Source of the DNA: Dehalococcoidia bacterium
GTDB lineage: Bacteria; Chloroflexota; Dehalococcoidia; DSTF01; RBG-16-68-14
Length of the DNA: 64,000 bases
Assembly (NCBI GenBank): GCA_040902195.1
Contig: JBBDXS010000019.1
Coordinates: 213,969-277,968, forward strand
Direction: 5' to 3'
Part shown: in pieces, positions 2,460 through 54,790 of the stretch
Layout: every line of letters starts with the position of its first letter
Position numbering within the stretch: the first letter of the stretch is position 1
Notes under the pieces: model-generated
What the model saw: only the letters and a program-made list of their open reading frames with translations
What the model was told of the DNA's origin: nothing
Database searches by the model: none
Translations under genes and position numbers: made by a program

Positions 2460-3367
2460 GCGCCCTTCACACCGAGCAGCTTCTGCAGCCTCGCCGCGTT
2501 TACCACGCCCTGGTCTTCAAGCTTCGTGTTGAACATAAGAAAGACGTCGTCGGCCTCCGCGGCGAGCTGGCCGATGCGCGGCAGCCACTCCGATAGCTCG
2601 TCGTCCGTGTAGAGCCAGTTCAGCTTTTCTTGGGTCGATGCTGTCTTGTCGTCCCATCGTTCGGCGTTGCGCCCGCGAAAGCGCACCGACGCAACGGGCG
2701 CTGTTACGGCAACGATCGGCGGAAAGCTTGTCTTGAGCTCCTGCGGCTCATCGACGCAGACGAAGCCGCACTTCAACTCGCGCAGGAGATCGAACGTCGA
2801 TGCCGCGCTCTCATCGTCGGAGACCCAGAGAGCGTTCCGGAACTCGACGATGACCGGGTCGTCCGCCAGACGCTCGCGCGCGTGTGCGATGAACTCGCGA
2901 TTCGCCTTCGACGGCACGAACCACGGCGGGAAGTCGAGCAACACCGCGCCCAGCTTGTCCTCGTCGCGGAGCGGCTGCAGCGCGCGGCGGAAGATCTGCC
3001 ACAGCTCCTCGCTGACCTCTGGGGGGATGTCCTTGTAGTAGACGCGCGCCTTCTTTTGGACGTCCGGCGGCAGCGATTCGTGGAAGCTCTTGGGGATGGA
3101 GGAGAAGCGCGTCGGGTGCTGGCTGAACAGCGCGAACACCTTGACGTTGAATCGAAAGCCCTCGGGCACCGCGCTGCCCCAACGCTCCATGTTTTTGTGC
3201 GACGGCATCGCGTAGTACGTGCTGTCGATCTCGGCCGTGCTGTACCGCTCGCCGTAGAAGGCGAGGCGTTCGGGCGTGTCCTTGAGCTCGGGCGGGTAGA
3301 AGCGCCCGCAATTGACGAGCGACTTTTCAGCCCACGATGACGTGCCGATGAAGAAGCGCGCTGCCAT
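2456..3367 (-). CDS. DUF72 (UPF0759) family protein
   Basis: True start is the internal ATG at 3367 (MAARFFIGTSSWAEK...), the typical DUF72 N-terminus. The upstream part of the 439-aa track ORF is non-coding leader. Confidence 0.82.
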   Translation of the reverse strand: MAARFFIGTSSWAEKSLVNCGRFYPPELKDTPERLAFYGERYSTAEIDSTYYAMPSHKNMERWGSAVPEGFRFNVKVFALFSQHPTRFSSIPKSFHESLPPDVQKKARVYYKDIPPEVSEELWQIFRRALQPLRDEDKLGAVLLDFPPWFVPSKANREFIAHARERLADDPVIVEFRNALWVSDDESAASTFDLLRELKCGFVCVDEPQELKTSFPPIVAVTAPVASVRFRGRNAERWDDKTASTQEKLNWLYTDDELSEWLPRIGQLAAEADDVFLMFNTKLEDQGVVNAARLQKLLGVKGA

Positions 3368-3550
3368 GGCCAGAAGGGAAGCGCGCTTTGCATGCGCTGT
3401 CAACTGTGCAGCGGCGCAGCCAGCGTTCGTTCCATAATGCGTATGTGCAACGCCGAACATACGCGAGAAAAAGAGCGGGTTCGCCTTTCGGGACCGGCGG
3501 TCGAGTGAGTGTGGCGGCTGTGCCAAGCGTCGCGACGGAACCTGGTAGGT

Positions 3551-3579
3551 TTGACAATTCTTTGCGTCAGCGCTAGCCT
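3551..3579 (+). promoter_or_regulatory. candidate sigma70-type promoter (TTGACA-N17-TAGCCT) driving the riboswitch leader and GT20 gene
   Basis: Perfect -35 hexamer TTGACA is rare in this GC-rich DNA; a weak -10 follows after a 17-nt spacer, about 15 nt upstream of the structured leader. Confidence 0.3.
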
Positions 3580-3594
3580 TATAGCAAGAAATCG

Positions 3595-3730
3595 AATATG
3601 GCCGAGTCCCGAAAGGGAACGGGGGAACCACCCGAATTTGGGGTGCATCCTTCCGGAGCGGAAGGAAGGGCAGTTCTTTCAGCCCTAACCCGACAGCTAA
3701 CCCCGTAGGCCACTGGAAGAAGAGGTGATC
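3595..3730 (+). ncRNA. ydaO/kimA-class (c-di-AMP) riboswitch-like 5' leader
   Basis: Contains GAACGGGGGAACC ... GGGGUGCAUCC ... ACCCGACAGCUAACCCCGUAGGC. These closely resemble the conserved ydaO elements (CGGGGGA-CC, GGGGUGAAUCC, CCCGACAGCUAACCUCGUAAGC, recalled from B. subtilis ydaO). A 5' UCCCGAAAGGGA hairpin is also present. The leader sits in a 558-nt intergenic region about 195 nt upstream of the GT20 start. Confidence 0.5.
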
Positions 3731-3924
3731 GTGAGCACCATCGGGTCGGCGTAGCCGCGTCGGCCCCTTTGTCATCTTGCAGATGACGTTCCGCGGCTGT
3801 TCGCTGGCGAAGGCGGCAGTTCGCTCAACAATCGAAATCTAAACGACTAATGCGGTTCCCGGCCGGGAGGCAGCTTCGAGTCTGTATGGCAGCGCTTTGG
3901 GCTCATGAGAACCAGGAGGCTTAG

Positions 3925-5478
3925 GTGTCAGGACGAACGAACGACCGCGCTTCCGAGAACGCTTCCGCGAATCAGAAGCTGAGCGGCCCGCAATCCAGCC
4001 GCAGGCTGATCTTGGTCAGCAACCGCGGCCCTGTCGAGCATCGCACGAACGAGCGCGGCGACATAGAGCAAGTCTGTGCCAGCGGCGGCGTTGCGGCTGC
4101 GCTTAGCGCGCTCGCCCCGGGCCGGCCGATCACGTGGATAGCCGCCGCCACAGGCGCGCTCGATCGCGTGCTGGCGACGCAAGGGGAGCTACTTCCTCTC
4201 GATGACGGAAAGTACGTTCGCCTGATCGCTCCGCCGCGGGAGGTCTACGATCTCTTCTACGGCACATTCAGCAATCCGGTCCTCTGGTTTGTCCAACACG
4301 CGATGTACGATCGTTTGGAGATGGACGACGTTGATGCCGTCGCTGTCGACGCGTGGCAGCGCGGTTATTTGCCGGTGAACCAGATCTTCGCTGAGACCGT
4401 GATCGATGAGCTGGAGCGAAGCGGAAGCCGCGGGCGCGTCATGTTGCACGATTATCACCTGTACGCCGCGCCGCTCTTCATCCGGAACCGCCGGCCCGAC
4501 GCTGTGCTCCAGCACTTCGTGCACATTCCCTGGCCCCAGCCCGACGCATGGCGCGTCCTACGAACGCCCATCGTCCAGTCCATTTGCGAAGGCCTCCTCG
4601 CAAACGACAGCGTGGCGTTCCAGACACAAGCCTTCGCGCGCAATTTCATCGATACGTGCCGCGCGTACCTCACGGATTGTGAGGCGACGGCGGATCGGAT
4701 CACGCACGCCGGCCGCTCGACGCGCGTCTGGGCGAATCCTGTGTCCGTTGACATCTGGGACCTGCGCCGTCAGCTCGCGTTGCCTGAGGCAGAAGCATAT
4801 CGCTCCAAGCTCGCCGCACCGCCGGAGATGCGCACGATCGTCCGCGTCGACCGGCTCGATCCGAGCAAGAACGTAGCGACAGGCTTCCGTGCCTTCGGCC
4901 GGCTGCTCGAATCGCACCCGGAGTGGGTGGGCAAGGTGCGCTTCCTGTCGTTCCTCGTGCCGTCGCGCACCGGCGTCGCGGAGTATCGCCGGTACAAGGA
5001 CGAAGTCTTCGCCGCTGCCGGGGAAGTAAACGCACGTTTTGCCACGCCGGATTGGCAGCCGGTCGCCATCTATTACGAACACAACCGCCTCCAAGCGCTC
5101 GTCGCCATGAGTCTCTACGACGTGCTGCTTGTCAATCCTCTCATCGATGGCATGAATCTGGTCTCCAAGGAAGGCCCGGCCGTGAACGCCAGGAACGGCG
5201 CCCTCGTGCTGTCCGAGACAACCGGTGCGTTCGAGGAGCTGCGTGCGGGAGCGATCCCGGTGCTGCCGCACGATATCGCCGGCACCGCCGCCGCGCTCGA
5301 TCGCGCACTCAGGCTTCCGGCGGAGGAGCGGCGCGAGTGCACGCGACTGCTGCGTGAGGCTATCGTGCGCCACGATCTGCGTCGCTGGTTCCGTCTGCTG
5401 CTCGAGGACCTCGACGCCATGTCGGAAGATGAGCCGCAAGCGAGCGGCCCCGCTCGCGAGGCGCTGCGCACGGGCTAG
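3925..5478 (+). CDS. otsA: GT20 family alpha,alpha-trehalose-phosphate synthase (OtsA-like; glucosylglycerol-phosphate synthase not excluded)
   Basis: 517 aa. LILVSNRGP, MLHDYHLY and a C-terminal UDP-binding region typical of GT20. GTG start preceded by AGGAGG with a 6-nt spacer. Confidence 0.85.
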   Translation: MSGRTNDRASENASANQKLSGPQSSRRLILVSNRGPVEHRTNERGDIEQVCASGGVAAALSALAPGRPITWIAAATGALDRVLATQGELLPLDDGKYVRLIAPPREVYDLFYGTFSNPVLWFVQHAMYDRLEMDDVDAVAVDAWQRGYLPVNQIFAETVIDELERSGSRGRVMLHDYHLYAAPLFIRNRRPDAVLQHFVHIPWPQPDAWRVLRTPIVQSICEGLLANDSVAFQTQAFARNFIDTCRAYLTDCEATADRITHAGRSTRVWANPVSVDIWDLRRQLALPEAEAYRSKLAAPPEMRTIVRVDRLDPSKNVATGFRAFGRLLESHPEWVGKVRFLSFLVPSRTGVAEYRRYKDEVFAAAGEVNARFATPDWQPVAIYYEHNRLQALVAMSLYDVLLVNPLIDGMNLVSKEGPAVNARNGALVLSETTGAFEELRAGAIPVLPHDIAGTAAALDRALRLPAEERRECTRLLREAIVRHDLRRWFRLLLEDLDAMSEDEPQASGPAREALRTG

Positions 5479-5970: not shown

Positions 5971-6813
5971 ATGGCGCTCGATCTCCTTAAGGCCGCAATT
6001 CTCGGCATCGTGCAAGGGCTGACCGAGTTCCTGCCGGTGTCGTCCACCGGACACCTCATTCTCGTCGAGAAGCTGTTGCGCGTCGATCAGGACCGCTACG
6101 GTCTCTCGTTCGATGCGGCATTGCACCTCGGCACGCTGGCGGCGCTACTTGTCTACTTCGGTCGTTCGTGGCTGGAGCTCATTGCCGGCTGGTTTCGCAC
6201 GATCGCCCAACGGTCGCTCGCCGACCCCGACGGGCGTATCGCATGGCTCATCATCCTCGGGACGATCCCGGCCGCTGCGATCGGTTTCGTGTTCGAAAGC
6301 CAGGTTGAGCACGCGTTTCGGAAGCCGGCGCTGGTCGGCGCGATGCTCATCGCCTTTAGCGCCGTGTTCTTCCTCGCCGAGGCAGCGGGCCGCCGAACGC
6401 GCAGCCGCGCCGGCCTGACCCCCGTCGATGCGCTCCTTATTGGGGGCGCGCAAGCGATCGCGCTCGTGCCCGGCGTCTCGCGATCCGGCGCGACGATCAG
6501 CATGGGCCTCTTTCGTAATTTCGAACGCGTTGAGGCGGCATCGTTCGCGTTCCTGCTCTCTGCGCCGATTATTGCCGGCGCGGGGCTGAAGAAAGCCTAT
6601 GACGTTGTCGGTGAGTTTCGCGATGGCACGTTGGGTGGCGCGGACGCGGCGTTCTTCGCCGTAGGCGCCGCGTGCGCCGCCATCGTCGGCTATATCAGCA
6701 TTGCGTTCCTGTTGCGCTTCCTCTCGACGAACAGCCTGCGGCCGTTCGCCTACTACCGTATCGCTTTGGGCGTGGGCGTGCTCGCGGTTGTTGGTGGGCA
6801 GGCGCTGTTCTAG
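5971..6813 (+). CDS. uppP: undecaprenyl-diphosphatase UppP (BacA)
   Basis: 280 aa polytopic membrane protein; GLTEFLPVSSTGHL and PGVSRSGATI signatures. Confidence 0.9.
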   Translation: MALDLLKAAILGIVQGLTEFLPVSSTGHLILVEKLLRVDQDRYGLSFDAALHLGTLAALLVYFGRSWLELIAGWFRTIAQRSLADPDGRIAWLIILGTIPAAAIGFVFESQVEHAFRKPALVGAMLIAFSAVFFLAEAAGRRTRSRAGLTPVDALLIGGAQAIALVPGVSRSGATISMGLFRNFERVEAASFAFLLSAPIIAGAGLKKAYDVVGEFRDGTLGGADAAFFAVGAACAAIVGYISIAFLLRFLSTNSLRPFAYYRIALGVGVLAVVGGQALF

Positions 6814-9131
6814 CGAAAGCGGACGGTCAGCGTCTTCGTTGCATCGAGCGTGAACGCGAAGCGGAGTACGCGCCCGTTTCGCTTCGGCGCTATCGACTCG
6901 CCATCGAGCGTCGCGCCGGCGAGTCGATAGGCCGCAGGCGCGTGTACGAAGACCGCACCGTCCTTCTTCGCGACCGGAGTGAGCGCCACACGCAGCGTCT
7001 TGCGTCGCGCGTCGTACGAGACGCGTTCGATCTCGCGGCCGCCCATCGATACGTGGAACGTCGTTGCGATGAGCTGCGGGCGGGCGACCGCGCGTCGCAG
7101 CGCGAGCAGCCGTGCGCCGTGCGACGGCATGTCCTGTAAGTTGACGTGTTGCTCGCGCACGCCGTAGTGGCGCTCCTCCCATAGCTCGAAGACGTGCCAG
7201 CGGCCGCGCGGCAGCGGCACGCGCATCGATTGCCGCCGTCCTGTCCAGTTGAATGCGCCGAGGAGCCGCCACGAACCGAACGGCCGCGAGAGATCGACCT
7301 CCATCCGCGCCGGCATCGATACGTCCATCAGGTCCGGTACGACGGGCGCGTCGCCGATCGGCGGCAGCAGAAGCGAGACGATGTCGAGCCGCTTCGCTGA
7401 GAGTGTCGTGACGTTGTCGCTGAGCAGCACCATGCCGCCGGACAGGCCGATCGCCGTCGCCAGCGATTGTACTTCGGGCAGCGTGAGCTTCGTGCGGTCC
7501 TCGCGTACGAGCAGGCAGTCGGGGTCGTTGGCCCACAGGCGCCCGTGCATCCAGGAGCGCGTGAACACGTTGCGCAGCGCATTCTCCATGCTCGGTTCGC
7601 CGCCTGCGCGCGGTCGTCCGGGGCGTTTCGGCGGCAGCGGGCGGTTGAATCGCCACCACGGTGCGACGTCCGGGCCGATGCGCTGTCCGTCGACGATGCC
7701 GGCCGATGCCCCCATCAGCGCGCCGCAGCCAAGCACGAACCGCTTGCCAACCGACGCGCGGATCGCGCGCAAGCCGCGTCGATACGCTTCGATGCGGGAC
7801 GCTGACGCGTCGCACCGCCGTCCCGCGAGCGCGCCGCCGTAGAGGAAATCGATCTTCACGTAGTCGTACGTCCAGTCACGCGTCACTGTGCGGAACAGGT
7901 CGCGCAGCCACGCCTCGGCGTCGGGATGCGTGCAATCGAGTCCGTAGCAATCCGAACCCCAGTTATGCAGCGCGAGGGCCGGCCCGCCCTGCTCGCTGTG
8001 GACCATCCAGTCGGGATGCTCGGCGTAGAGCTGTGACGTTTTGCTGGCGATGAACGGCGCGAGCCAGAGGCCGGGTTTGAATCCGGCATCGCGGATCGCT
8101 TCCGCAAGTGAGCGCATGCCGTTCGGGAACTTCTCGTTGGTCGTCGTCCAGTCGCCGATGTCCGCCTGGTAGCCGTCATCGATCTGCACGTAGTCGAATG
8201 GTAAGCGGTCGCGCAGCCCGCGCAGCCGGTCAAGGTTCGCGAGGATGTCGGCTTCCGTAACGTTCGTGAAGTAGTAGTACCAGGAGCACCAGCCTGTCGG
8301 GACCTCGCGCGGCACGCGAGCGCCCATCTCGCGGCCGAGCGCGCCGGCATAGCGCGCGAGCGCGGCCGGTACGTCGTCAGTCAGCTCAATGAGCAATCGC
8401 TCCGACCACAACGTCTCGCCGGGCGCGACCGTCGCGCCGTCCGCGAACGCGACGGCATCGAGCGCCTGGCGGGACGCGTCGACCCGCACCTGTGTCCACT
8501 GTCGATGCGCCGTTACGAAGCCGAGGACGGCGGAGCGGCCTGTGACGGGATCGCTGATCGCGGTGAACTCCTCCGACGCGAACGCCCCGCGGCCGTCCGG
8601 CACGTCGGCGGGCGCGTGCACGGGCGGCCGCACGTCGATGTCGCGTTGCGCGCCCGCAAGCGAAAGCGTCGGCGTCCACGACTGCCAGCCGTGCCGTAAG
8701 AAGCGCAATTGCGCCGGCGGCGACTCGAACGCGAGCGAATGCGTCGTGAGCGGCACGAACCGTCGAATGCGCCGCGCCGTACGGCCCGTGTTCTCCACGC
8801 CGACGCGCAACAGCACGAACGGCTGCTCGTCGTATGCGCACACGTCGAGATGTAGTCGCGCGCCCTCGATTGCGTCCGTCGCCAGAAAGACGCGAGTGCC
8901 GCGGCCGTGTGCGTCATCGACAAGCCTCGGACGGTCCTCCGCCCTCCAACCAGACGCAGCGGACGAGACCGTAGCGCCGCCCTCGAACTCCACCAGCGCC
9001 GTCGCTTTCGCGATCGGACGCCAGCGGCCCCACGAAACGTCTGCCGCGCCGTCGCGGAGCGACACGCGCACGCGCGTGCGGCCGGCCGCGACCGTGACCT
9101 CGTCCGAAGAAAGATCGACCTCTGCGCGCAC
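6810..9131 (-). CDS. alpha-galactosidase, GH36 family
   Basis: 773 aa. GWCSWYYYF, DYVQIDDGYQ, YVKIDFLY catalytic-region motifs. GTG start 1 nt after the galK stop. Confidence 0.85.
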   Translation of the reverse strand: MRAEVDLSSDEVTVAAGRTRVRVSLRDGAADVSWGRWRPIAKATALVEFEGGATVSSAASGWRAEDRPRLVDDAHGRGTRVFLATDAIEGARLHLDVCAYDEQPFVLLRVGVENTGRTARRIRRFVPLTTHSLAFESPPAQLRFLRHGWQSWTPTLSLAGAQRDIDVRPPVHAPADVPDGRGAFASEEFTAISDPVTGRSAVLGFVTAHRQWTQVRVDASRQALDAVAFADGATVAPGETLWSERLLIELTDDVPAALARYAGALGREMGARVPREVPTGWCSWYYYFTNVTEADILANLDRLRGLRDRLPFDYVQIDDGYQADIGDWTTTNEKFPNGMRSLAEAIRDAGFKPGLWLAPFIASKTSQLYAEHPDWMVHSEQGGPALALHNWGSDCYGLDCTHPDAEAWLRDLFRTVTRDWTYDYVKIDFLYGGALAGRRCDASASRIEAYRRGLRAIRASVGKRFVLGCGALMGASAGIVDGQRIGPDVAPWWRFNRPLPPKRPGRPRAGGEPSMENALRNVFTRSWMHGRLWANDPDCLLVREDRTKLTLPEVQSLATAIGLSGGMVLLSDNVTTLSAKRLDIVSLLLPPIGDAPVVPDLMDVSMPARMEVDLSRPFGSWRLLGAFNWTGRRQSMRVPLPRGRWHVFELWEERHYGVREQHVNLQDMPSHGARLLALRRAVARPQLIATTFHVSMGGREIERVSYDARRKTLRVALTPVAKKDGAVFVHAPAAYRLAGATLDGESIAPKRNGRVLRFAFTLDATKTLTVRFR

Positions 9132-9132
9132 G

Positions 9133-10335
9133 CTAGGTACTCGCTCTGTGCATACGCAGGCCGTCCGCGGCGCGGCAGACGACCATGCGCGCCTCGTGCT
9201 TCGTCTGCATCGCGTACCGTTCGACGACGTCAGCGCGAAACGAGGCGAGCGCTTCGCTGCGCACGAGATTCACCGTGCAGCCGCCGAAGCCCGCGCCCGT
9301 CAGCCGCGCCCCGAACACGCCGGCCGCACCTTGCGCCAGCGCGACCAGGCAGTCCAGCTCCGGAGCGCTCACCTCGAAGTCGTCGCGCAGGCTGGCGTGC
9401 GAAGCATTCATCATCGCGCCGAACGACTCGAGGTCGCCGCCGCGCAGCGCCTCTACCGCCGACACGACGCGCCGCTGCTCGCTTGCGACGTGTCGCGCGC
9501 GGCGCAGCAGCGTCTCGGGCAGCGCCGGGCCGTGCTGAGCGAGATCGTCCAGCGTGACATCGCACAGCGATGTGAGATCGCGGCCTGGCTGGGCGTCTCG
9601 GAGCGCGTCGAGCGCCTCGCCGCATTCCTCCCGCCGCGCGTTGTACGCAGAGTCCTCGAGCTGCCGGCGCACGCCCGAATCGACCACCACGATCGCAACG
9701 CCCTGATCCTCGAGCCGGAGCGGAACGGGTTCGTGCGCGAGCGAGCGGCAGTCGATCAGCAGCGCGTGGTCGCGGACGCCGAACGTTGCGGCGAGCTGGT
9801 CCATGACGCCGCAGTGCACGCCGACGAAGTCGTTCTCCGCGCGCTGCGCGAGCAGGGCGACGCGCAGGTCGTCGAGTTCGAGACGCCATGCGGCCCGCAG
9901 CGCGCCCAGCGTCGCGACTGCGAGCGCCGCGGAGGATGATAGCCCGGCGCCGATCGGTACGTTGCCTGCGATCGTGAGATCGACGCCCGGCGTAGCGAAG
10001 CCCTCGCCGCGCAGCACGTCCAGCACGCCTCGAACGTAGTTGCTCCACGAACGCGTGTCGTCGCGCGCGATCGGCGCGTCCAGCGCCAGCGAGGACTCCT
10101 CGTCGTAGTCGAGGGAGTAGCAGCGCGCGAGCGCATCGTCGCGCGCCGCGTACGCGACGAGCACGGAGCGGTCGATTGCCATCGGCAGGACGAGGCCGCC
10201 ATTGTAATCGAGGTGCTCGCCGATCAGGTTGACGCGTCCGGGCGCCTCCGCAACGCCGTCCGCCGTGCGGCCGAACCGCCTGCGGAACGCATCGCTTACC
10301 TTCGCAACGCGCCGCTCGATGGCCTCATCCTCCAT
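9133..10335 (-). CDS. galK: galactokinase
   Basis: 400 aa. APGRVNLIGEHLDYNGG (GHMP kinase/galactokinase signature) and PIGAGLSSSAA motif. Confidence 0.9.
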   Translation of the reverse strand: MEDEAIERRVAKVSDAFRRRFGRTADGVAEAPGRVNLIGEHLDYNGGLVLPMAIDRSVLVAYAARDDALARCYSLDYDEESSLALDAPIARDDTRSWSNYVRGVLDVLRGEGFATPGVDLTIAGNVPIGAGLSSSAALAVATLGALRAAWRLELDDLRVALLAQRAENDFVGVHCGVMDQLAATFGVRDHALLIDCRSLAHEPVPLRLEDQGVAIVVVDSGVRRQLEDSAYNARREECGEALDALRDAQPGRDLTSLCDVTLDDLAQHGPALPETLLRRARHVASEQRRVVSAVEALRGGDLESFGAMMNASHASLRDDFEVSAPELDCLVALAQGAAGVFGARLTGAGFGGCTVNLVRSEALASFRADVVERYAMQTKHEARMVVCRAADGLRMHRAST

Positions 10336-10339
10336 CGCG

Positions 10340-11470
10340 CTACGTCCGCGGAGCGACAGAGCGCAGACGGCGCGCTGTGTCCTCAGCCTTCGCGTCGAGG
10401 ATGTACGTGCCTGCGCCCGTCTCGCAGCCGGCGAGGAACTTCAGCTTGTCGGGTGTGCGGTGCGGCGGCGTGAACTCGATGTGGAAGTGACAGCCGGGAT
10501 GGCGGCCGCCGTCTGTAGGACGCTGGTGCATGACCATGATGTAGGGAAGGGGGAAGTCCCACAGGCCGTCGTACTTCTGCGTGATGATCTTCATCACCCG
10601 GGCCAGCCCTTCGCGCTCCGCCGCCGTCAGCTCCAGCAGGGACGGCCTGTGCGCCTTGCTAGCAACGTGTACTTCGTACGGAAAGCGCGCGTAATGCGGC
10701 ACGAACGCCACGAACGTCTCGTTCTGCGCGACGATGCGCTGCTTGTCGCGCAGCTCCGCCGCGACGATGTCGCAGTGCAGGCAACGGCCGTGCTCGCGCC
10801 GGTAGCGACGGGCCACCGCCAGCTCGCGCGCGGGCTCCGGCGGAAGGTACGAGAAGCCGTAGATCTGGCCGTGCGGGTGTGTCAGCGTTACGCCGATCTC
10901 CTTCCCGCGGTTCTCGAAGATCAGCACGTACGCGATCTCGCGCCGGGCCGCCAGATCGCGATAGCGGTCCGTCCACACCTCGACGAGGCGCGTGATGTGC
11001 TCGACCGGCAGTTGCGCCAGCGTCGTATCGTGCGCCGAAGTGTAGAGCGTGACCTCGCAGGTGCCGAGCGCGCGTGACGTCTCGAACGGCCGCCGCGTCT
11101 TCGATGGCGCAGGCGGGTCGCTACGTAGACTCGGAAAGCGGTTCTCGAACACGGCGATCTCGTAGTCGCGCGACGGCACCTCCGTCGGCGACTTCGCGTT
11201 GCGCGTTGGGCAGAGCGGGCAGTAGCGCGCGGGCGGCAAGAACGTCCGCCCTTGCCGTTCCGGTGCGACGATGACCCATTCGTCCAGCACGGGATGGCGG
11301 CGCAGCTCGAGTCCCTCCGACTCCAGCTTGTGCGCTCTCGATGGCTGTGCAACCTCCGGAAGCGGGCGGTCCCAGGCGTAGTACCAGAGGTGGCGGCCGT
11401 CAGGCTTGGTGACGCGGGCTTTGCGTAGGGGCATCGCTGCCAGTCTAGGCATGCCCCCGGCGGGCGGCAA
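10340..11470 (-). CDS. galT: galactose-1-phosphate uridylyltransferase
   Basis: 376 aa. CPLCP zinc motif and HPHGQIYG active-site His-Pro-His. Start ambiguous (TTG 11470, ATG 11452 or 11434). Confidence 0.88.
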   Translation of the reverse strand: MPPAGGMPRLAAMPLRKARVTKPDGRHLWYYAWDRPLPEVAQPSRAHKLESEGLELRRHPVLDEWVIVAPERQGRTFLPPARYCPLCPTRNAKSPTEVPSRDYEIAVFENRFPSLRSDPPAPSKTRRPFETSRALGTCEVTLYTSAHDTTLAQLPVEHITRLVEVWTDRYRDLAARREIAYVLIFENRGKEIGVTLTHPHGQIYGFSYLPPEPARELAVARRYRREHGRCLHCDIVAAELRDKQRIVAQNETFVAFVPHYARFPYEVHVASKAHRPSLLELTAAEREGLARVMKIITQKYDGLWDFPLPYIMVMHQRPTDGGRHPGCHFHIEFTPPHRTPDKLKFLAGCETGAGTYILDAKAEDTARRLRSVAPRT

Positions 11471-12729: not shown

Positions 12730-13163
12730 GGTGTCCTCCGGGGCGGCAGTATAGCACGCCCCGCGTCGCGGCTTGCCGTCTTCCTATCCGGGAACGTATG
12801 ACTGCGCAACGGACGGCGCGGGCGGCTCTACCCGCTACTGCTTCGCGACGGCGCAAACGGCTCGGATGGCTTACAAGAACATCGGCCTGTTGAACGACAC
12901 CTTCGGTGTCGCATTTACGTGCGGTTTGAAATCGTCGTCGCCGGGGTATCTGATGGTTTAGGACCGCGGGCCGCAGCTTGCACCCAACGCCTGGAATCTG
13001 AGCCCGGCTGACGGCCAATCGACCTCTTCAGCGATTTCTTCGGAGTGGCCTTCCAGTTCGGGCACCACCCCAATGAGGACCCCCGCGGCTCTGAGCTAGC
13101 TGGTAGATGCAGGGAGAGCCTAAACAGGCCGATATTCCCTCTAGGCGTTGATTGGAGGGCTGC

Positions 13164-15017
13164 GTGCCTCACAGGAGCACCGGCAAACGGGCCTGGCTCT
13201 CGACTGGAACTCGCTCAGTTGTTGCGTGGACGGTCGTGGCTGGAGCTGCGGCATTCCTGAAGCAACGCCTTGATCGCGAGGCTGTACATCGGGATGGTGA
13301 GGGAGACATCGACCGTCTCTATCGCGACAGCCTGAACGAAAATGCTCAGCTCGAGAAGGCGCTAGAGCGCGAGCGAGAGCTCGCCCGGCGCGATCCGCTC
13401 ACCGGCTGCCTAAACCACGCCGTCGTCCTAGAAGAATTACGACGAGCTCTGGGCCAAGAGGGCGTCCTGGCGCTGTCCGTTGCGTTGGTAGACGTCGATG
13501 GGCTGAAGGCGACCAACGATCTCTATGGACACCAGGTTGGCGATGCGGCGCTGATCAGCGTTGCGAACGCGCTCCAGCAGGGCGGCGCGATCGTTGGGCG
13601 CTATGGCGGCGACGAGTTCGTCGTCGTGCTGCCGGGCGTCGATCGCGATCAGGCCGAACGTTATCGCGAGCTTGTCCAGGGTCTGCTCGCCGCTGCGCAG
13701 CTCACGTCGCCAGACGGACCTGTCGATGTGCCCGTCATTGCGAGTATGGGTCTTGCCACGTACCCGGAAGAAGGCCACGCTGCAGAAGAGCTGCTCAAGC
13801 TCGCAGACAACGCGATGTACGCAGAGCGGCGCCGTCCTGCTCCCGGCCGCGTCGCCGCGCTACGATTCGATAGCGAGCGCGTCGCGAAGCTCCTCGGAGA
13901 CATCGTGCCGCTTCTTACGTCGAAGGGCACGCGCGAAGAGAAGCTGGAGACGCTTGCGCAGCACCTCTCCGTTGGCACCGGCTACGACGCCGTGAACATC
14001 GAGGTCGCAGGCATCCGCTCGGGACAAGCGGCCGAGTGGGAGAACACGTTTGCCCGCGCTCCGCGTGAGGTGCTCGATGCGTGGCAGGAAGAACAGCATC
14101 GCGAAGCGGAGCACCCGCTGAGCACGTTCCTTGAGGAAACGCGACAGCCGCACTTTGTCGCGGACGTCACGACGGAAGAGCGACTCACGGATAACGAACG
14201 ACAGATCCTGATGGCGTCCGGCATCAAGTCGGCCCTCGTCGTCCCCATGATCTGGCAGGACCAGTTCGTGGGTATGCTTTCAGTCGTCAGCAAGACACAC
14301 GGTACCTTCGGCGCGTGGGACGCACAGTTCCTGACCGCGGTCACGATGCACGTGACGGCTATCGTCTTCATGACCGATCTCGTCGAAGACCTTCAGGAAG
14401 CGTCCAAGTATCTCTCGGAGGCGCACGCCGAGACCGTCCTCATGCTCGCCGCCGCCGCCGAGGCCTACGACGACGGTACCGGCTCGCACCTCATGCGCGT
14501 GCGGACGATTACGGAGGCGCTGGCGAAGGAGCTGGGCTACAGCGATCACGACATCTGGCGCCTCGGCCTTGCCGCCGTGCTGCACGACGTGGGTAAGATC
14601 CGGGTACCGATCGCTGTCCTCACCAGCCCGCAGGGACTCACACAGGCCGAATGGGGCGAGATGCGCCGGCACACCGTGTGGGGCGCGGAGCTCCTGCGCG
14701 GACGGCGCGGGTTCGAGCTCGCATCGCAGGTTGCGCACTGCCATCACGAGCGCTGGGACGGGAAGGGCTACCCCGACGGCCTCGCCGGCGACGAGATCCC
14801 GGAAGCAGCCGCCATCGTCTCTGTCGCCGACAGCTTCGACGCGATGACGAGCGACCGGCCGTATCGAGTCTCGCGCCCGGCCGCCGAGGCGCTCGCCGAG
14901 ATCAACGCCTGCTCGGGCGTGCAGTTCAATCCGCACGTCGTCGCAGCGCTCAACAGGCTCGCCGAGCGAGGCGCGCTACCTGAGCACGAGCATCATGAGG
15001 AGGCGGCGGCCGCCTAG
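13164..15017 (+). CDS. GGDEF-GAF-HD-GYP multidomain c-di-GMP signalling protein
   Basis: RDPLTGCLNH ... GRYGGDEFVVVL (GGDEF with RYGGDEF A-site); central GAF (LVVPMIWQDQFVGML); C-terminal HD-GYP (HLMRV, LHDVGKI, HHERWDGKGYPDGL). Start moved to the GTG at 13164, preceded by GGAGGG (track ORF opens at TTG 13152). Confidence 0.85.
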   Translation: MPHRSTGKRAWLSTGTRSVVAWTVVAGAAAFLKQRLDREAVHRDGEGDIDRLYRDSLNENAQLEKALERERELARRDPLTGCLNHAVVLEELRRALGQEGVLALSVALVDVDGLKATNDLYGHQVGDAALISVANALQQGGAIVGRYGGDEFVVVLPGVDRDQAERYRELVQGLLAAAQLTSPDGPVDVPVIASMGLATYPEEGHAAEELLKLADNAMYAERRRPAPGRVAALRFDSERVAKLLGDIVPLLTSKGTREEKLETLAQHLSVGTGYDAVNIEVAGIRSGQAAEWENTFARAPREVLDAWQEEQHREAEHPLSTFLEETRQPHFVADVTTEERLTDNERQILMASGIKSALVVPMIWQDQFVGMLSVVSKTHGTFGAWDAQFLTAVTMHVTAIVFMTDLVEDLQEASKYLSEAHAETVLMLAAAAEAYDDGTGSHLMRVRTITEALAKELGYSDHDIWRLGLAAVLHDVGKIRVPIAVLTSPQGLTQAEWGEMRRHTVWGAELLRGRRGFELASQVAHCHHERWDGKGYPDGLAGDEIPEAAAIVSVADSFDAMTSDRPYRVSRPAAEALAEINACSGVQFNPHVVAALNRLAERGALPEHEHHEEAAAA

Positions 15018-31159: not shown

Positions 31160-32215
31160 TTACGCCCCGCGCAGCGTCTCGAGCAGCTCCCGCACGAGCC
31201 TCTCGTCGCTCCGCATTCCCGGCGCCAGCCCGAGGAACAGCGTCGACGCGATGCCGCCCCAGCGCTCTTTGAGCTGCGGGCCGACTTCGTCATAGGTCCC
31301 GATCACCGCGAATTCGGCAAGCATCTCGTCCGTGATGAGGCGGCCCATCTCGCCCCACTTTCCCTCTATCGAGTAGGCGTGGAGCGTCTGCCCGGCCTCC
31401 GTCCAGCCGTGATGGTCCAGCACCGCGTGGTACGTCCGCGTTGATGCGTAGAACGCGATGTGCTGCCGTACGCCCGGCTTCGCCGCCTCGACTTCGTCAC
31501 GCGTCTCGCCGGTGATCACGAACGGCGTCGCGACGAGATCGACGTCGCTCGCGAGGCGGCCGGTCTTCTGCGCGCCCGCCTCGATGGCTGGCCGCAGCAC
31601 ATCGGCCGTGTACTTCGCTGTGACGAGCGGATGGACGCGGACGCCTTCGCAGATTTCGCCCGCCAGTTTCGCCATGTAGGGGTTCAGCGCCGAGATGTAG
31701 ATCGGCACGTTCGGATGCTCGATCGGCCCCGGGTTGAAGAACGGCGTCATGAGCGTGTAGGTGTAATACTTGCCCTGGAAGCTGGGCCGCGTGCCGTTTT
31801 GGAACGAGTCGAAGATCGCGCGCAGGCATTCGACGTACTCGCGCATGCGCGGCCCCGCCGGTCCCGACCACGGCGTCGAGTAGCGCCGCTCGTTGTGGCC
31901 CTTTACCTGCGTGCCGATGCCCAGCTCGAACCGCCCGTTCGACCAGCGCTGCAGGTCCCACGCGATCTGCGCCGTCACCATCGGGCTGCGCGGGAACGCG
32001 ATCGCCACGTTCGTACCGAGGTGGAGGCGCTGCGTATGCTCCGCCGCGATCATGAGCGGCAGGAACGGGTCGTGCCCCGTCTCCGGTGTGCTCGCTGCGT
32101 CGAACCCCAGCGCCTCAATCTCACGCGCCGCCTCCGCGATCCCGTCGAGCGGGTTCGTCAGCGCCGCGCCCCCCGGCCCTGCCCCCGCGCCCGCCAGTAT
32201 CGTCTCTACGCGCAT
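31160..32215 (-). CDS. LLM-class (luciferase-like) flavin/F420-dependent oxidoreductase
   Basis: 351 aa from the ATG at 32215 (MRVETILAG...), preceded by GGGAGGA. The longer 542-aa track ORF runs through the tRNA-Pro and is not coding there. Confidence 0.85.
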   Translation of the reverse strand: MRVETILAGAGAGPGGAALTNPLDGIAEAAREIEALGFDAASTPETGHDPFLPLMIAAEHTQRLHLGTNVAIAFPRSPMVTAQIAWDLQRWSNGRFELGIGTQVKGHNERRYSTPWSGPAGPRMREYVECLRAIFDSFQNGTRPSFQGKYYTYTLMTPFFNPGPIEHPNVPIYISALNPYMAKLAGEICEGVRVHPLVTAKYTADVLRPAIEAGAQKTGRLASDVDLVATPFVITGETRDEVEAAKPGVRQHIAFYASTRTYHAVLDHHGWTEAGQTLHAYSIEGKWGEMGRLITDEMLAEFAVIGTYDEVGPQLKERWGGIASTLFLGLAPGMRSDERLVRELLETLRGA

Positions 32216-32240
32216 ATGCGTCCTCCCGAAGTCATGGAGT

Positions 32241-32257
32241 TGGATTGGATTGGATTG
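32241..32257. repeat. (GGATT)3 microsatellite between the LLM start and tRNA-Pro
   Basis: ggattggattggattgg read directly. Confidence 0.6.
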
Positions 32258-32270
32258 GAGAGGGGAGAGT

Positions 32271-32347
32271 TGGTCGGGGCGACTGGACTCGAACCAGCGA
32301 CCTCCTGACCCCCAGTCAGGTGCCCTACCAAGCTGGGCCACGCCCCG
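32271..32347 (-). tRNA. tRNA-Pro(GGG): tRNA-Pro (anticodon GGG), CCA encoded
   Basis: Reverse complement folds as CGGGGCG/CGCCCCG acceptor, GCCC/GGGC D-stem, CCUGA/UCAGG anticodon stem with loop CUGGGGG (U33, G37), GCUGG-UUCGAGU-CCAGU T-arm, discriminator A, CCA. Confidence 0.88.
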
Positions 32348-32421
32348 GACCTTGGCTCCAGGGTATCCGCGCGCCGTGCTGTCCGTCAAACGATGCCGCC
32401 AGCTCTCATCACACGCTCGCG

Positions 32422-33288
32422 CTAGCGAATAGCCGCCAGCCACGCCGTCGCCAGGACCGCCGTCGCCATGCCGATCAGGCCGAAGCCGATCTGGTGCGCC
32501 GCCTGCCCCGGACGCACGACGTGCGCGCCGATGGCGCCCCCAAGCAGCGCCGCCGCTAGCGCGGCACCGGTTGCGAAGGGTCGCCAGTCGTAGTCCAGGC
32601 GGAATCCGAGGGCTACCGCGAGCACCAGCGCGAGCGCGAAGCTGCCCCAGGCGAGCCGCCGCGTCGCGTCCGCGCCGATCGTGTGGGCAAGCCCGCGGAC
32701 CCCGGCCCTCCTGTCGGCCGCGATGTCCGGAAGGGTGTTGGAGAGGTGAACAGCCAGGCCCGCCAGGGGTGCGAACGGGATCAGCCACCAGAGTTCGCTT
32801 GAGAACCGGTCAAGCGACACCCAGACCCAAAAGGGCAGCGCCGGCAACGCGATCATGAAGGGGACCGGGCTCAAGATGCTTCGCTTAAGACGGACGTTGT
32901 ACGCCAGTCCCGCGGCCAGCCCAATGGCTCCAACGGCCAGCGATAACGGGCCGAACGTGGCGGCGAGCACGCCTGCTACCAGCGCCGCACCGCCGGCGAG
33001 CAGCAGCGCCGTCCTCGGCTCGAGCAGCCCCTGAACGATCGGCTTGTACGGCTTCGTTTCGGCGTCCAGATCTCGGTCGCAGTAGTCGTTCGAGGCGCCG
33101 ATGGCCGCCTGCGCGCAGAACATTGCGCCTGCGAGGCGGACGAGCGTCGAGCCCGCGGGGATGCCCTCATTGGCGATGGTTGCCAGGCCTATCGTCGCGG
33201 CAACGTTCAGCGCGACCGGGAAGGGGTGGATTACGCGTGCCGCCCGGATAACGCGGCCGAGAGATCGTTCGGCGCCTCGTCCCTCCAT
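32422..33288 (-). CDS. UbiA family aromatic prenyltransferase
   Basis: NDYCDRDLD (first Asp-rich UbiA motif); polytopic membrane protein. ATG at 33288. Confidence 0.85.
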   Translation of the reverse strand: MEGRGAERSLGRVIRAARVIHPFPVALNVAATIGLATIANEGIPAGSTLVRLAGAMFCAQAAIGASNDYCDRDLDAETKPYKPIVQGLLEPRTALLLAGGAALVAGVLAATFGPLSLAVGAIGLAAGLAYNVRLKRSILSPVPFMIALPALPFWVWVSLDRFSSELWWLIPFAPLAGLAVHLSNTLPDIAADRRAGVRGLAHTIGADATRRLAWGSFALALVLAVALGFRLDYDWRPFATGAALAAALLGGAIGAHVVRPGQAAHQIGFGLIGMATAVLATAWLAAIR

Positions 33289-53632: not shown

Positions 53633-54790
53633 TCAGTAGCGAAGCACGGCGGCGATGCAGGCCTCTTCGAGGAGCGCGGCCTCGGCGTCTTGGTGGACGG
53701 TCTCGATGAGCGCGCCGGTTTGCAGCGCTCGTTCGATGGCCCATTCAGCGAGATCGGCCACCGGCTCAAGCGTCTGGCCACACACAGGGCACTCGCCCAG
53801 GGTTTCGATAGCGGCAAAGTCGCCGGCGGGGCATGCGCTGCCCTTGATGTTGCGCTGTGTCGCTACAACCAGTTTATGGACCCGCCCCTCACCCAGCGCC
53901 TGCAGCGTGTCGTCCCAGCCGACAGTCCCCAGCGCTCCGGAACGAGCCGCGTCAAGAACGTCGGAAACGATCTGGCGCTCGGCTTCGCTTTCGGCGGCGG
54001 CTTCGACCTCTTCGACGCGCTCGACAATCTGCTCGTCGGAGAGGAACTCTTCTGCCGCGAACGTACCGGCCACGCGCGTCCGCAGACCCCGAGGTAGCAC
54101 GGAGAGGAAGGCTGCGCGCGCCTCGTCCGGGCCCCCGACAATCAACCGATCGAATGAACGACGCTTAGCCTCAACCTGCAACTGCTTGGCGGCGCGCACG
54201 AGGTGACTGTGGAGGTGGGCATCGCGGTGCCGCGAGTAGCCGGGCTGGGCCCACCCGCCCCTCTTGCTGCGGCCAGGGTACTTGTCAACGACGTCTACCG
54301 CGTGCTCGACTCGCCCCAGGTACACGTGCAGCAGACGGGCGTGGTCTTTATCGACAAGAGCGACGGCGTACCGCTCGTAGTCGTCTAGAATGGCTGCGAG
54401 CGGCGCAAGGACCGGCCGCTCGGCAAAACGGGCGAGCGGCTGGACCGGTACCTGCAACTGAAACAGGTCCCACAACCCGCGCGGCTGGCAAGAAAAGAGC
54501 GCAACACCGCGGCCGGCCAGCTCGAAGTCATCGCGGAGGAATTCGATCACGCGGCGTCGCTCGTCGTCCACGCGGCCCTGGAGAAGGCCGCGCGCAGTGC
54601 CGCCGAGCGTATGGAGGACGTTCGTGGCTACACCGTGAATATCGCGCCGCTCGCCTCCCGACGTCTCGAAGGAAAGGTACACAGAGAGCACCCCGTGCGG
54701 ACTGCGAAAGCGCCCCAACCGGCGCAGGTCCCCTTCGGTTGGCGCTCGGAGCTGGTTGATTGTTGCCCGGTTTCGTGTTGGCATAGTCAT
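53633..54790 (-). CDS. eRF1/Pelota-like (bacterial baeRF family) protein with C-terminal zinc ribbon
   Basis: Central PGRSKRGGWAQPGYSRHRDAH parallels eRF1 domain-2 HGRGGQSALRFARLR (GGQ replaced by GGW-AQ). C-terminal CPAGD...CPVCGQ zinc ribbon. From memory it resembles M. tuberculosis Rv2629 (recalled as eRF1-like). Confidence 0.65.
   Translation of the reverse strand: MTMPTRNRATINQLRAPTEGDLRRLGRFRSPHGVLSVYLSFETSGGERRDIHGVATNVLHTLGGTARGLLQGRVDDERRRVIEFLRDDFELAGRGVALFSCQPRGLWDLFQLQVPVQPLARFAERPVLAPLAAILDDYERYAVALVDKDHARLLHVYLGRVEHAVDVVDKYPGRSKRGGWAQPGYSRHRDAHLHSHLVRAAKQLQVEAKRRSFDRLIVGGPDEARAAFLSVLPRGLRTRVAGTFAAEEFLSDEQIVERVEEVEAAAESEAERQIVSDVLDAARSGALGTVGWDDTLQALGEGRVHKLVVATQRNIKGSACPAGDFAAIETLGECPVCGQTLEPVADLAEWAIERALQTGALIETVHQDAEAALLEEACIAAVLRY

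Follow-up and report, generated by a model that had tools for sequence, protein, structure and literature searches.

What lies between a GT20 glycosyltransferase gene and its divergent neighbour in a Dehalococcoidia genome, and does it decide when the glycosyltransferase is made? The question arises in a 64,000-nucleotide (nt) stretch of contig JBBDXS010000019.1 (GenBank assembly GCA_040902195.1, positions 213,969 to 277,968; Chloroflexota; 66% G+C), which we call the window and number from its first letter. A preliminary description, made from the sequence without database searches, had proposed a cyclic di-AMP (c-di-AMP) riboswitch of the ydaO/kimA class at 3540–3930, in an intergenic region of 558 nt. 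The length was about right: with the most plausible start of the divergent DUF72 gene, an ATG at 3367 on the minus strand (MAARFFIGTSSW...), the region measures 557 nt. The proposed span covers the promoter and the whole leader, whereas the aptamer itself occupies only 3590–3726 on the plus strand. This aptamer is a genuine, ordinary member of the RF00379 family, and we consider it likely that it serves as a c-di-AMP OFF switch attenuating transcription of a probable trehalose-6-phosphate synthase in Dehalococcoidia.

A c-di-AMP riboswitch aptamer ahead of the GT20 gene

Scanned against Rfam at gathering threshold, the whole 64 kb gave a single match other than tRNAs, namely RF00379 (c-di-AMP, ydaO/yuaA) at 3590–3726 on the plus strand with 103.5 bits (E 1.6e-23, computed for 64 kb, both strands and 4227 families). 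The match spans the full model (1–134 of 134) and scores nearly three times the gathering score of 38, which bears out the assignment to the ydaO class. A permissive Rfam scan of 3367–3960 for rival RNA families returned noise only (13.6 and 13.5 bits, E 6–7). Since nothing besides RF00379 rose above 13.6 bits, no other family fits better and the leader contains no further known element, and a competing family for the aptamer region, one of the outcomes that the preliminary description had named as telling against it, is ruled out.

At the level of the letters, the motifs CGGGGGAACC at 3620, GGGGTGCATCC at 3640 and ACCCGACAGCTAACCCCGTAGGC at 3688 each occur once in the window. Like the TTGACA box, the strong Shine-Dalgarno (SD) sequence and the GTG start codon, all of them stand where they had been reported, to within one base. 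The aptamer matches nearly all upper-case positions of the Rfam consensus core (e.g. CG.GGGA.CC, GGGGUG, CCCG.CAGCUAACC.CG.AGGC), and a single-sequence minimum free energy (MFE) fold of the window recovers the nested helices of the RF00379 model. Helix P1 pairs 3600–3603 with 3708–3711, and a pseudoknot joins the hairpin loop 3674–3681 (UUCUUUCA) to the 3′ tail 3714–3721 (UGGAAGAA), including a U-A pair where relatives have C-G. This loop-tail pairing also emerged independently, and unprompted, from RNAalifold.

For covariation, the window aptamer was combined with 13 homologous aptamers upstream of GT20 genes (14 distinct sequences); a covariance model was built on the Rfam architecture, the sequences were realigned to it and the pseudoknot was then added. 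Over the 29 nested and 8 pseudoknot pairs, 97.3% of the cells hold standard pairs, and 14 of the 37 pairs show compensatory changes on both sides. The pseudoknot helix by itself is 95.2% paired and contains 2 covarying pairs. When sequences were shuffled, at most 5 of 500 shuffles reached the observed value on any measure and none did so on four of the five measures; when the 3′ partners were displaced, pairing fell to 39–56%. Covariation sits in two variable hairpins, one further stem and the pseudoknot, whereas the core helices are invariant, as are the core consensus columns in all 14 homologues, and are thus uninformative on covariation either way. The pseudo-two-fold architecture that had been predicted, made up of P1, two three-way junction halves and hairpins, is therefore supported by covariation in 14 homologous leaders, pseudoknot included. 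That the aptamer binds c-di-AMP selectively, with two molecules per aptamer, we infer from its family membership.

Conservation of the riboswitch–GT20 pairing

A scan of GTDB species-representative genomes yielded 80 GT20 loci, all from Chloroflexota. RF00379 is found at or above its gathering score, upstream of GT20 and on the same strand, in 13 of the 80 (L001–L004, L006–L010, L018, L029, L035 and L050); at a 14th locus, L024, the fetched DNA ends within an aptamer and leaves its 3′ half, so that 14 of 80 is a lower bound. An independent metagenome sample has the aptamer in the same arrangement in 5 of its 80 GT20 loci. The closest relatives of the window protein are metagenome proteins of 66–70% identity, and all three of their contigs that reach upstream carry the aptamer (L081, L083 and, in part, L082). 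In a neighbour-joining tree of GT20 proteins the riboswitch-bearing genes cluster: the main clade comprises the window gene, L001–L004, L006–L010 and L018, with only L005 and L012 inside it lacking the element, and L029, L035 and L050 stand on adjacent basal branches. These distributions support conservation of the riboswitch–GT20 pairing in related Chloroflexota.

Some Chloroflexota genomes hold two or three GT20 paralogues. The metagenome-assembled genome (MAG) MFD02416.bin.2.180 has two GT20 paralogues, L018 with the riboswitch and L012 without an aptamer and preceded by otsB, which suggests that constitutive and c-di-AMP-gated trehalose synthases can exist side by side in one genome. Three GT20 loci (L024, L026 and L080) belong to MAG MFD00709.bin.2.102.

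The window has a single aptamer. Metagenome locus L118 (contig Ga0209640_10058864, 1–900) carries three c-di-AMP aptamers in series on one strand upstream of GT20, at 1–58 (cut by the contig end), 232–370 (120.9 bits) and 577–722 (123 bits). The second is followed by an SD sequence and a 66-codon open reading frame (ORF; 372–572, containing CTACGE) that is unmatched in the other fetched sequences. Consecutive aptamers on one strand recall the 77 tandem c-di-AMP riboswitch doublets that have been catalogued (Sherlock et al. 2022, PMC9481103); that catalogue lists only doublets for this class, whereas L118 has three aptamers with an ORF between the second and third. The L118 aptamers may thus regulate separate cistrons rather than form one pseudo-cooperative unit.

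Putative promoter and leader of the GT20 gene

The GT20 leader is about 340 nt long, and the aptamer forms its 5′ part. The features of the region are:

3551–3579, plus strand: putative sigma-70-type promoter (−35 TTGACA at 3551–3556, 17-nt spacer, −10 TAGCCT at 3574–3579)
3590–3726, plus strand: c-di-AMP riboswitch aptamer (RF00379, 103.5 bits; 124 bits with the clade-specific model R1)
3601–3611, plus strand: candidate antiterminator strand GCCGAGUCCCG (5′ strands of aptamer P1/P2), complementary to the terminator 5′ arm 3742–3750 CGGGUCGGC
3743–3779, plus strand: terminator-like hairpin GGGUCGGCG-UAGC-CGCGUCGGCCC, then an interrupted U-tract CUUUGUCAUCUUG; presumed attenuator
3771–3787, plus strand: second hairpin GUCAUCU-UGC-AGAUGAC of the MFE structure, its 5′ arm overlapping the U-rich tail of the terminator
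3788–3913, plus strand: remainder of the long leader, with blocks common to the closest relatives and no Rfam family matched
3914–3919 and 3925–3927, plus strand: SD sequence AGGAGG and GT20 start codon GTG, read from the sequence
3925–5478, plus strand: GT20 glycosyltransferase of 517 amino acids (aa), probable (NDP-glucose) trehalose-6-phosphate synthase, OtsA-like (PF00982)

The promoter had been described as near-consensus. This holds for the −35 box, which is perfect, but not for the best −10 box at 17-nt spacing, TAGCCT, which matches at three of six positions and for that reason was not called by a consensus scan. Transcription is predicted to start a few bases ahead of the aptamer. Orthologous leaders show TTGACA or TGGACA with TAnnnT, or a perfect TATAAT, at equal offset from the aptamer, and the TTGACA/TAGCCT promoter is on these grounds plausible but unproven. 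A GGAGG-type SD sequence occupies the equivalent position in the relatives.

Two minor features of the region were also noted. A 24-codon ATG ORF at 3850–3924, the TAG of which abuts the GT20 start (TAG|GTG), was considered as a leader peptide and rejected, as it has no obvious SD sequence and is probably due to chance. Further upstream, at 3439–3464 in the divergent promoter region that separates DUF72 from the promoter of the riboswitch, stands an inverted repeat with perfect 8-bp arms (GCGTATGT-N10-ACATACGC), which may serve as an operator for a protein or form a small hairpin.

Presumed expression platform and probable mode of regulation

How would the aptamer act on the gene? A scan of 3350–4000 for terminator-like sites found one only, the hairpin at 3743–3766 (10 pairs, about −17.7 kcal/mol), which the MFE structure also contains. 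Its position is homologous to that of the canonical terminators, a GC stem followed by a U-run, that stand 8–19 nt after the aptamer in L001–L004, L008, L009, L018, L029, L035 and L050 (for instance GGCCGGAG...CUCCGGCC-UGUUUUUAUU in L001, CCGACC...GGGUCGG-UUUUUUU in L002 and GGGUCUGAGG...CCUCAGACCC-UUUUUGUG in L050). The closest relatives, L081–L085, have kept the same hairpin with similarly interrupted U/C-rich tails.

If the 3′ arm of the terminator is left out of the fold, 3742–3750 is predicted to pair with aptamer positions 12–22. The energies of this duplex are −21.2 kcal/mol in the window, −26.9 in L081 and −16.4 in L083, and the L081 equivalent follows that locus's own different P2 loop. 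As a universal antiterminator the pairing was rejected, because folds without the 3′ arm and duplex energies give it for the window and L081 but not for L083 and other subclades. The pairing of 3601–3611 with 3742–3750 is accordingly a candidate antiterminator only, to which covariation lends no consistent support.

The class has been described as OFF switches working through terminator formation (PMC9960051), and a c-di-AMP riboswitch of Dehalobacter allows less than 5% read-through into an osmolyte biosynthesis gene when c-di-AMP is present in vitro (PMC9337991); from these precedents we infer OFF attenuation here. Transcription would probably start at the TTGACA/TAGCCT promoter just upstream of the aptamer. 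With c-di-AMP abundant, the aptamer would be locked through P1, the core helices and the loop-tail pseudoknot, hairpin 3743–3766 would form, and transcription would be attenuated so that the synthase is not made. With c-di-AMP falling, as happens in studied bacteria under hyperosmotic stress, 3601–3611 could instead pair with the terminator 5′ arm 3742–3750, RNA polymerase would read through and trehalose synthesis would be induced. Repression at high c-di-AMP, a state that has been read as ‘not in osmotic distress’ (PMC9337991), would fit the known restraint that c-di-AMP places on K+ and osmolyte accumulation.

A number of observations weigh against this proposal. The terminator tail of the window (CUUUGUCAUCUU) is a poor U-tract with three consecutive U, and part of it belongs to the second hairpin, so that intrinsic termination may not be efficient; certain actinobacterial c-di-AMP riboswitches have no canonical terminators and act differently (PMC9960051). 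The antiterminator pairing would have to bridge about 140 nt and is inconsistently kept, being weak in L083, and other subclades show local linker pairings only, with no pairing between P1/P2 and the terminator arm. In the MFE structure of the full leader, aptamer and terminator coexist without ligand, which means that switching, if it occurs, would have to be kinetic. No role is assigned to the roughly 160 nt of conserved leader that follow the hairpin and precede the SD sequence. As to the signal, no genes of c-di-AMP metabolism were found in the 64-kb window: a Pfam scan detected no DAC domain among its 39 larger ORFs, and the DAC motif (RHR[AS] plus DGA) occurs in no window ORF of at least 100 aa. 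With no diadenylate cyclase gene in the window, production of c-di-AMP by the host is assumed. As to the product, the GT20 protein lies under the OtsA equivalog cut-off and no OtsB homologue was found in the window.

The alternative that survives best keeps the OFF polarity and does without intrinsic termination, the leader at 3767–3913 acting instead on translation initiation, on RNA stability or through Rho. High-GC c-di-AMP riboswitches without canonical terminators, such as those of Streptomyces coelicolor rpfA and Corynebacterium glutamicum nlpC, the latter apparently translational (PMC9960051), make it a live rival, and it would account for the weak U-tract, for the conserved spacer between aptamer and SD sequence (the distance from aptamer to start codon is about 200 nt in the window and its closest relatives) and for a long-range helix predicted in the MFE structure between 3724–3740 and 3895–3913, right beside the SD sequence. 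What tells against it is the positional homology of hairpin 3743–3766 with unmistakable intrinsic terminators in more distant leaders. Sequestration of the SD sequence, moreover, was rejected, as a consistent anti-SD partner is absent from the window and from L081–L085 and the SD sequence is not paired with the leader in the window's MFE structure. On balance we regard regulation without intrinsic termination as rather unlikely, and attenuation at the hairpin as the better account.

An anti-aptamer helix was rejected as well. RNAalifold predicted it in five of six close relatives, between the 3′ strand of the aptamer (CCUCGUAGGC) and a downstream block (GCUGGCGAGG), but it is broken in the window (CCCCGU versus CGAAGG) with no compensatory change.

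A different arrangement was seen in a subclade of leaders (L004, L006, L007, L008, L009 and L018), which share a conserved anti-SD-like CCUCCUUGC right after the terminator U-run, some 40–70 nt after the aptamer. Further downstream the 5′ arm of the terminator occurs a second time (CAGCCGG). Their read-through transcripts could on this evidence adopt alternative pairings, and attenuation might in this way be coupled to the accessibility of the SD sequence.

The GT20 protein and its likely product

The downstream gene had been assigned to GT20, and the 517-aa protein indeed matches PF00982 over its full length (326.2 bits against a cut-off of 32.5; profile 2–472 of 473). Among NCBIfam models it scores 333.2 bits with PRK14501 (bifunctional OtsA/OtsB; equivalog cut-off 634), 304.7 bits with TIGR02400 (OtsA; equivalog cut-off 564.85) and 180 bits with TIGR02398 (glucosylglycerol-phosphate synthase, GgpS; cut-off 569). 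As all three scores fall under their cut-offs, the protein is OtsA-like, not a certified OtsA. Among solved structures the best match is 5lqd (264.9 bits; VldE-type structures, 139.6 bits), an alpha,alpha-trehalose-phosphate synthase that we take to be Streptomyces venezuelae OtsA, and the alignment to it retains SNRGP, HDYHL, RVDR..SKN and NP..DGMNLV.KE, presumably the acceptor- and donor-binding motifs of OtsA. An identical protein in the NCBI entry “MAG: Dehalococcoidia bacterium” is named trehalose-6-phosphate synthase.

Five loci place an OtsB homologue in the same apparent operon as a riboswitch-bearing GT20 gene. It lies directly downstream of GT20 in L002, L003 and L086, and between aptamer and GT20 in L024 and in L010, where it encodes a 260-aa Trehalose_PPase protein (PF02358, 92.7 bits) with a stop codon overlapping the GT20 start. 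OtsB also adjoins GT20 in many family members without the riboswitch. The greater closeness of the window protein to OtsA than to GgpS, together with the trehalose-phosphatase genes of orthologous operons, makes trehalose the likely product, so that of the two solutes offered by the preliminary description, trehalose or glucosylglycerol, the first is the likelier. Trehalose-6-phosphate is, judged by this gene context, most likely the product of the clade, though the window gene travels alone.

OtsB, UppP and a 126-aa ORF were considered as conserved operon partners in the window and rejected. OtsB is absent from the window; the other two, which are the next plus-strand genes after GT20 (the 126-aa ORF without a family, then uppP/bacA at 5971–6813), gave no tblastn match in the GTDB loci and so show no linkage to GT20 there. 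BacA recurs near GT20 in L081, but an oppositely oriented MFS gene intervenes.

Could the enzyme, under a real riboswitch, make some other glucosylated phosphate solute or a pseudo-sugar, in the manner of GgpS or VldE? The score under every NCBIfam equivalog cut-off and the want of an OtsB gene within 64 kb would allow it, VldE-type pseudo-glycosyltransferases match too (about 139 bits), and the riboswitch-linked genes form a clade of their own. Yet OtsA is far ahead of both GgpS and VldE in score, the alignment to 5lqd keeps all four motifs, and members of the same clade share operons with Trehalose_PPase genes, so we hold such a product to be improbable and trehalose-6-phosphate to be the better assignment.

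The leader downstream of the hairpin and the polarity of the switch

The conserved leader between hairpin and SD sequence raises the question of whether 3771–3913 is a second, hitherto undescribed regulatory RNA domain. In L081–L085 the second hairpin reads GUCUUC...GAAGAC, which by eye amounts to a compensatory A-U to U-A exchange against GUCAUC/GAUGAC in the window; it was left out of the compensatory-pair count because the alignment puts this position out of register. Blocks shared with the closest relatives include GCUGGCGA, GCAGUUCG, GCGGUUCCC.GCCG, GUCUGU and CGCUUUG. The segment (about 980–1140 in L081, with counterparts in L083, L082, L084 and L085) is conserved among L081–L085 at 0.57–0.83, compared with 0.45–0.55 at four-fold sites of the adjacent gene, both ranges excluding the one closely related pair. 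Between the window and L081–L085 the values are 0.49–0.55 and 0.47–0.53, that is, at saturation level only, and the comparison rests on six sequences, too few for a structural verdict. A metagenome scan for closer relatives of the window-type leader gave identities of at most 54%. A second domain seems to us improbable. If it were real, the GT20 leader would resemble the Na+/c-di-AMP logic gate in combining two inputs, c-di-AMP and a further signal, e.g. an ion, a sugar phosphate or temperature.

An ON switch, in which c-di-AMP binding would promote GT20 expression, has nothing direct in its favour beyond the fact that polarity is unproven from sequence while the antiterminator is a candidate only, and we set it aside as highly improbable: a terminator immediately 3′ of the aptamer without overlap is the usual OFF layout, all characterised members are OFF, and a compatible solute would be made just when the cell signals no osmotic distress.

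Comparison with known c-di-AMP riboswitches

By score, nested helices, pseudoknot and conserved core, the window aptamer belongs to the same family as Bacillus subtilis ydaO (kimA), with which it also shares the layout of the 5′ untranslated region, an aptamer followed by a terminator-type hairpin; OFF polarity would be expected here as well. In B. subtilis, however, the host is a member of the Firmicutes and the target a K+ transporter, whereas here the host belongs to the Chloroflexota and the target is a cytoplasmic sugar-phosphate synthase; in addition, the U-tract of the window is poor and its leader runs on for about 160 nt past the hairpin.

The nearest functional parallel is the riboswitch of Dehalobacter sp. 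(2022, PMC9337991), which likewise precedes a gene for the synthesis, not the transport, of a compatible solute and is a terminator-based OFF switch, the same logic by which the osmolyte would be made only at low c-di-AMP. It differs in phylum and solute pathway (trehalose via GT20/OtsB in the window) and in its Na+ aptamer, whereas the window leader has no other Rfam family. The S. coelicolor rpfA and C. glutamicum nlpC switches resemble the window in having a high-GC host and a canonical aptamer and in lacking a textbook U-rich terminator, but they control cell-wall hydrolases; the window gene is a sugar-phosphate synthase, and its distant orthologues have canonical terminators.

That the pairing is not a standard one, as the preliminary description had it, agrees with the searchable literature, in which we found no paper pairing a ydaO/c-di-AMP riboswitch with otsA or trehalose synthesis, though Block 2010 and Nelson 2013 could list it. 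It is nevertheless less unprecedented than supposed, given the osmolyte gene of Dehalobacter (PMC9337991) and a review passage that links the class to “synthesis and transport of osmoprotectants” (PMC7288161, citing Block et al. 2010). It is fair to say that the RNA class and its logic were already known and that the controlled gene is a new example fitting an established theme; the understanding of the class itself is unchanged, and a specialist will not be surprised.

What the locus adds is a riboswitch annotation of high confidence, which pipelines that consider only proteins would overlook, and an extension of the predicted c-di-AMP regulon of Chloroflexota from transport and cell-wall genes to probable trehalose synthesis (GT20 with or without OtsB). 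The conserved cis-regulatory link implies c-di-AMP signalling in these Chloroflexota and helps to assign a function to a divergent GT20 clade under the OtsA equivalog threshold. Since Dehalococcoidia and SAR202-type Chloroflexota are mostly uncultured, the link also offers a testable hypothesis on their response to osmotic or desiccation stress.

Other features of the window

Just beyond DUF72, on the minus strand, genes for Ku (378–1229) and an ATP-dependent DNA ligase (1383–2459) constitute a bacterial non-homologous end joining module. On the other side of the GT20 gene, a minus-strand cluster at 6810–11470, convergent on uppP, comprises an alpha-galactosidase-like gene (Melibiase/GH31), galK and galT. 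A GGDEF-GAF-HD domain protein encoded at 13152–15017 on the plus strand points to c-di-GMP signalling in the neighbourhood. At 31160–32788 on the minus strand, an ORF of 542 aa assigned to a luciferase-like monooxygenase overlaps with a tRNA gene (32274–32347, minus strand) and matches its Pfam family only from residue 205 onward, which makes it probable that the monooxygenase really starts far downstream of the first start codon in frame. Finally, 53633–54790 on the minus strand encodes a bacterial archaeo-eukaryotic release-factor-like protein of an uncommon family (baeRF_family10, with weak similarity to acVLRF1).

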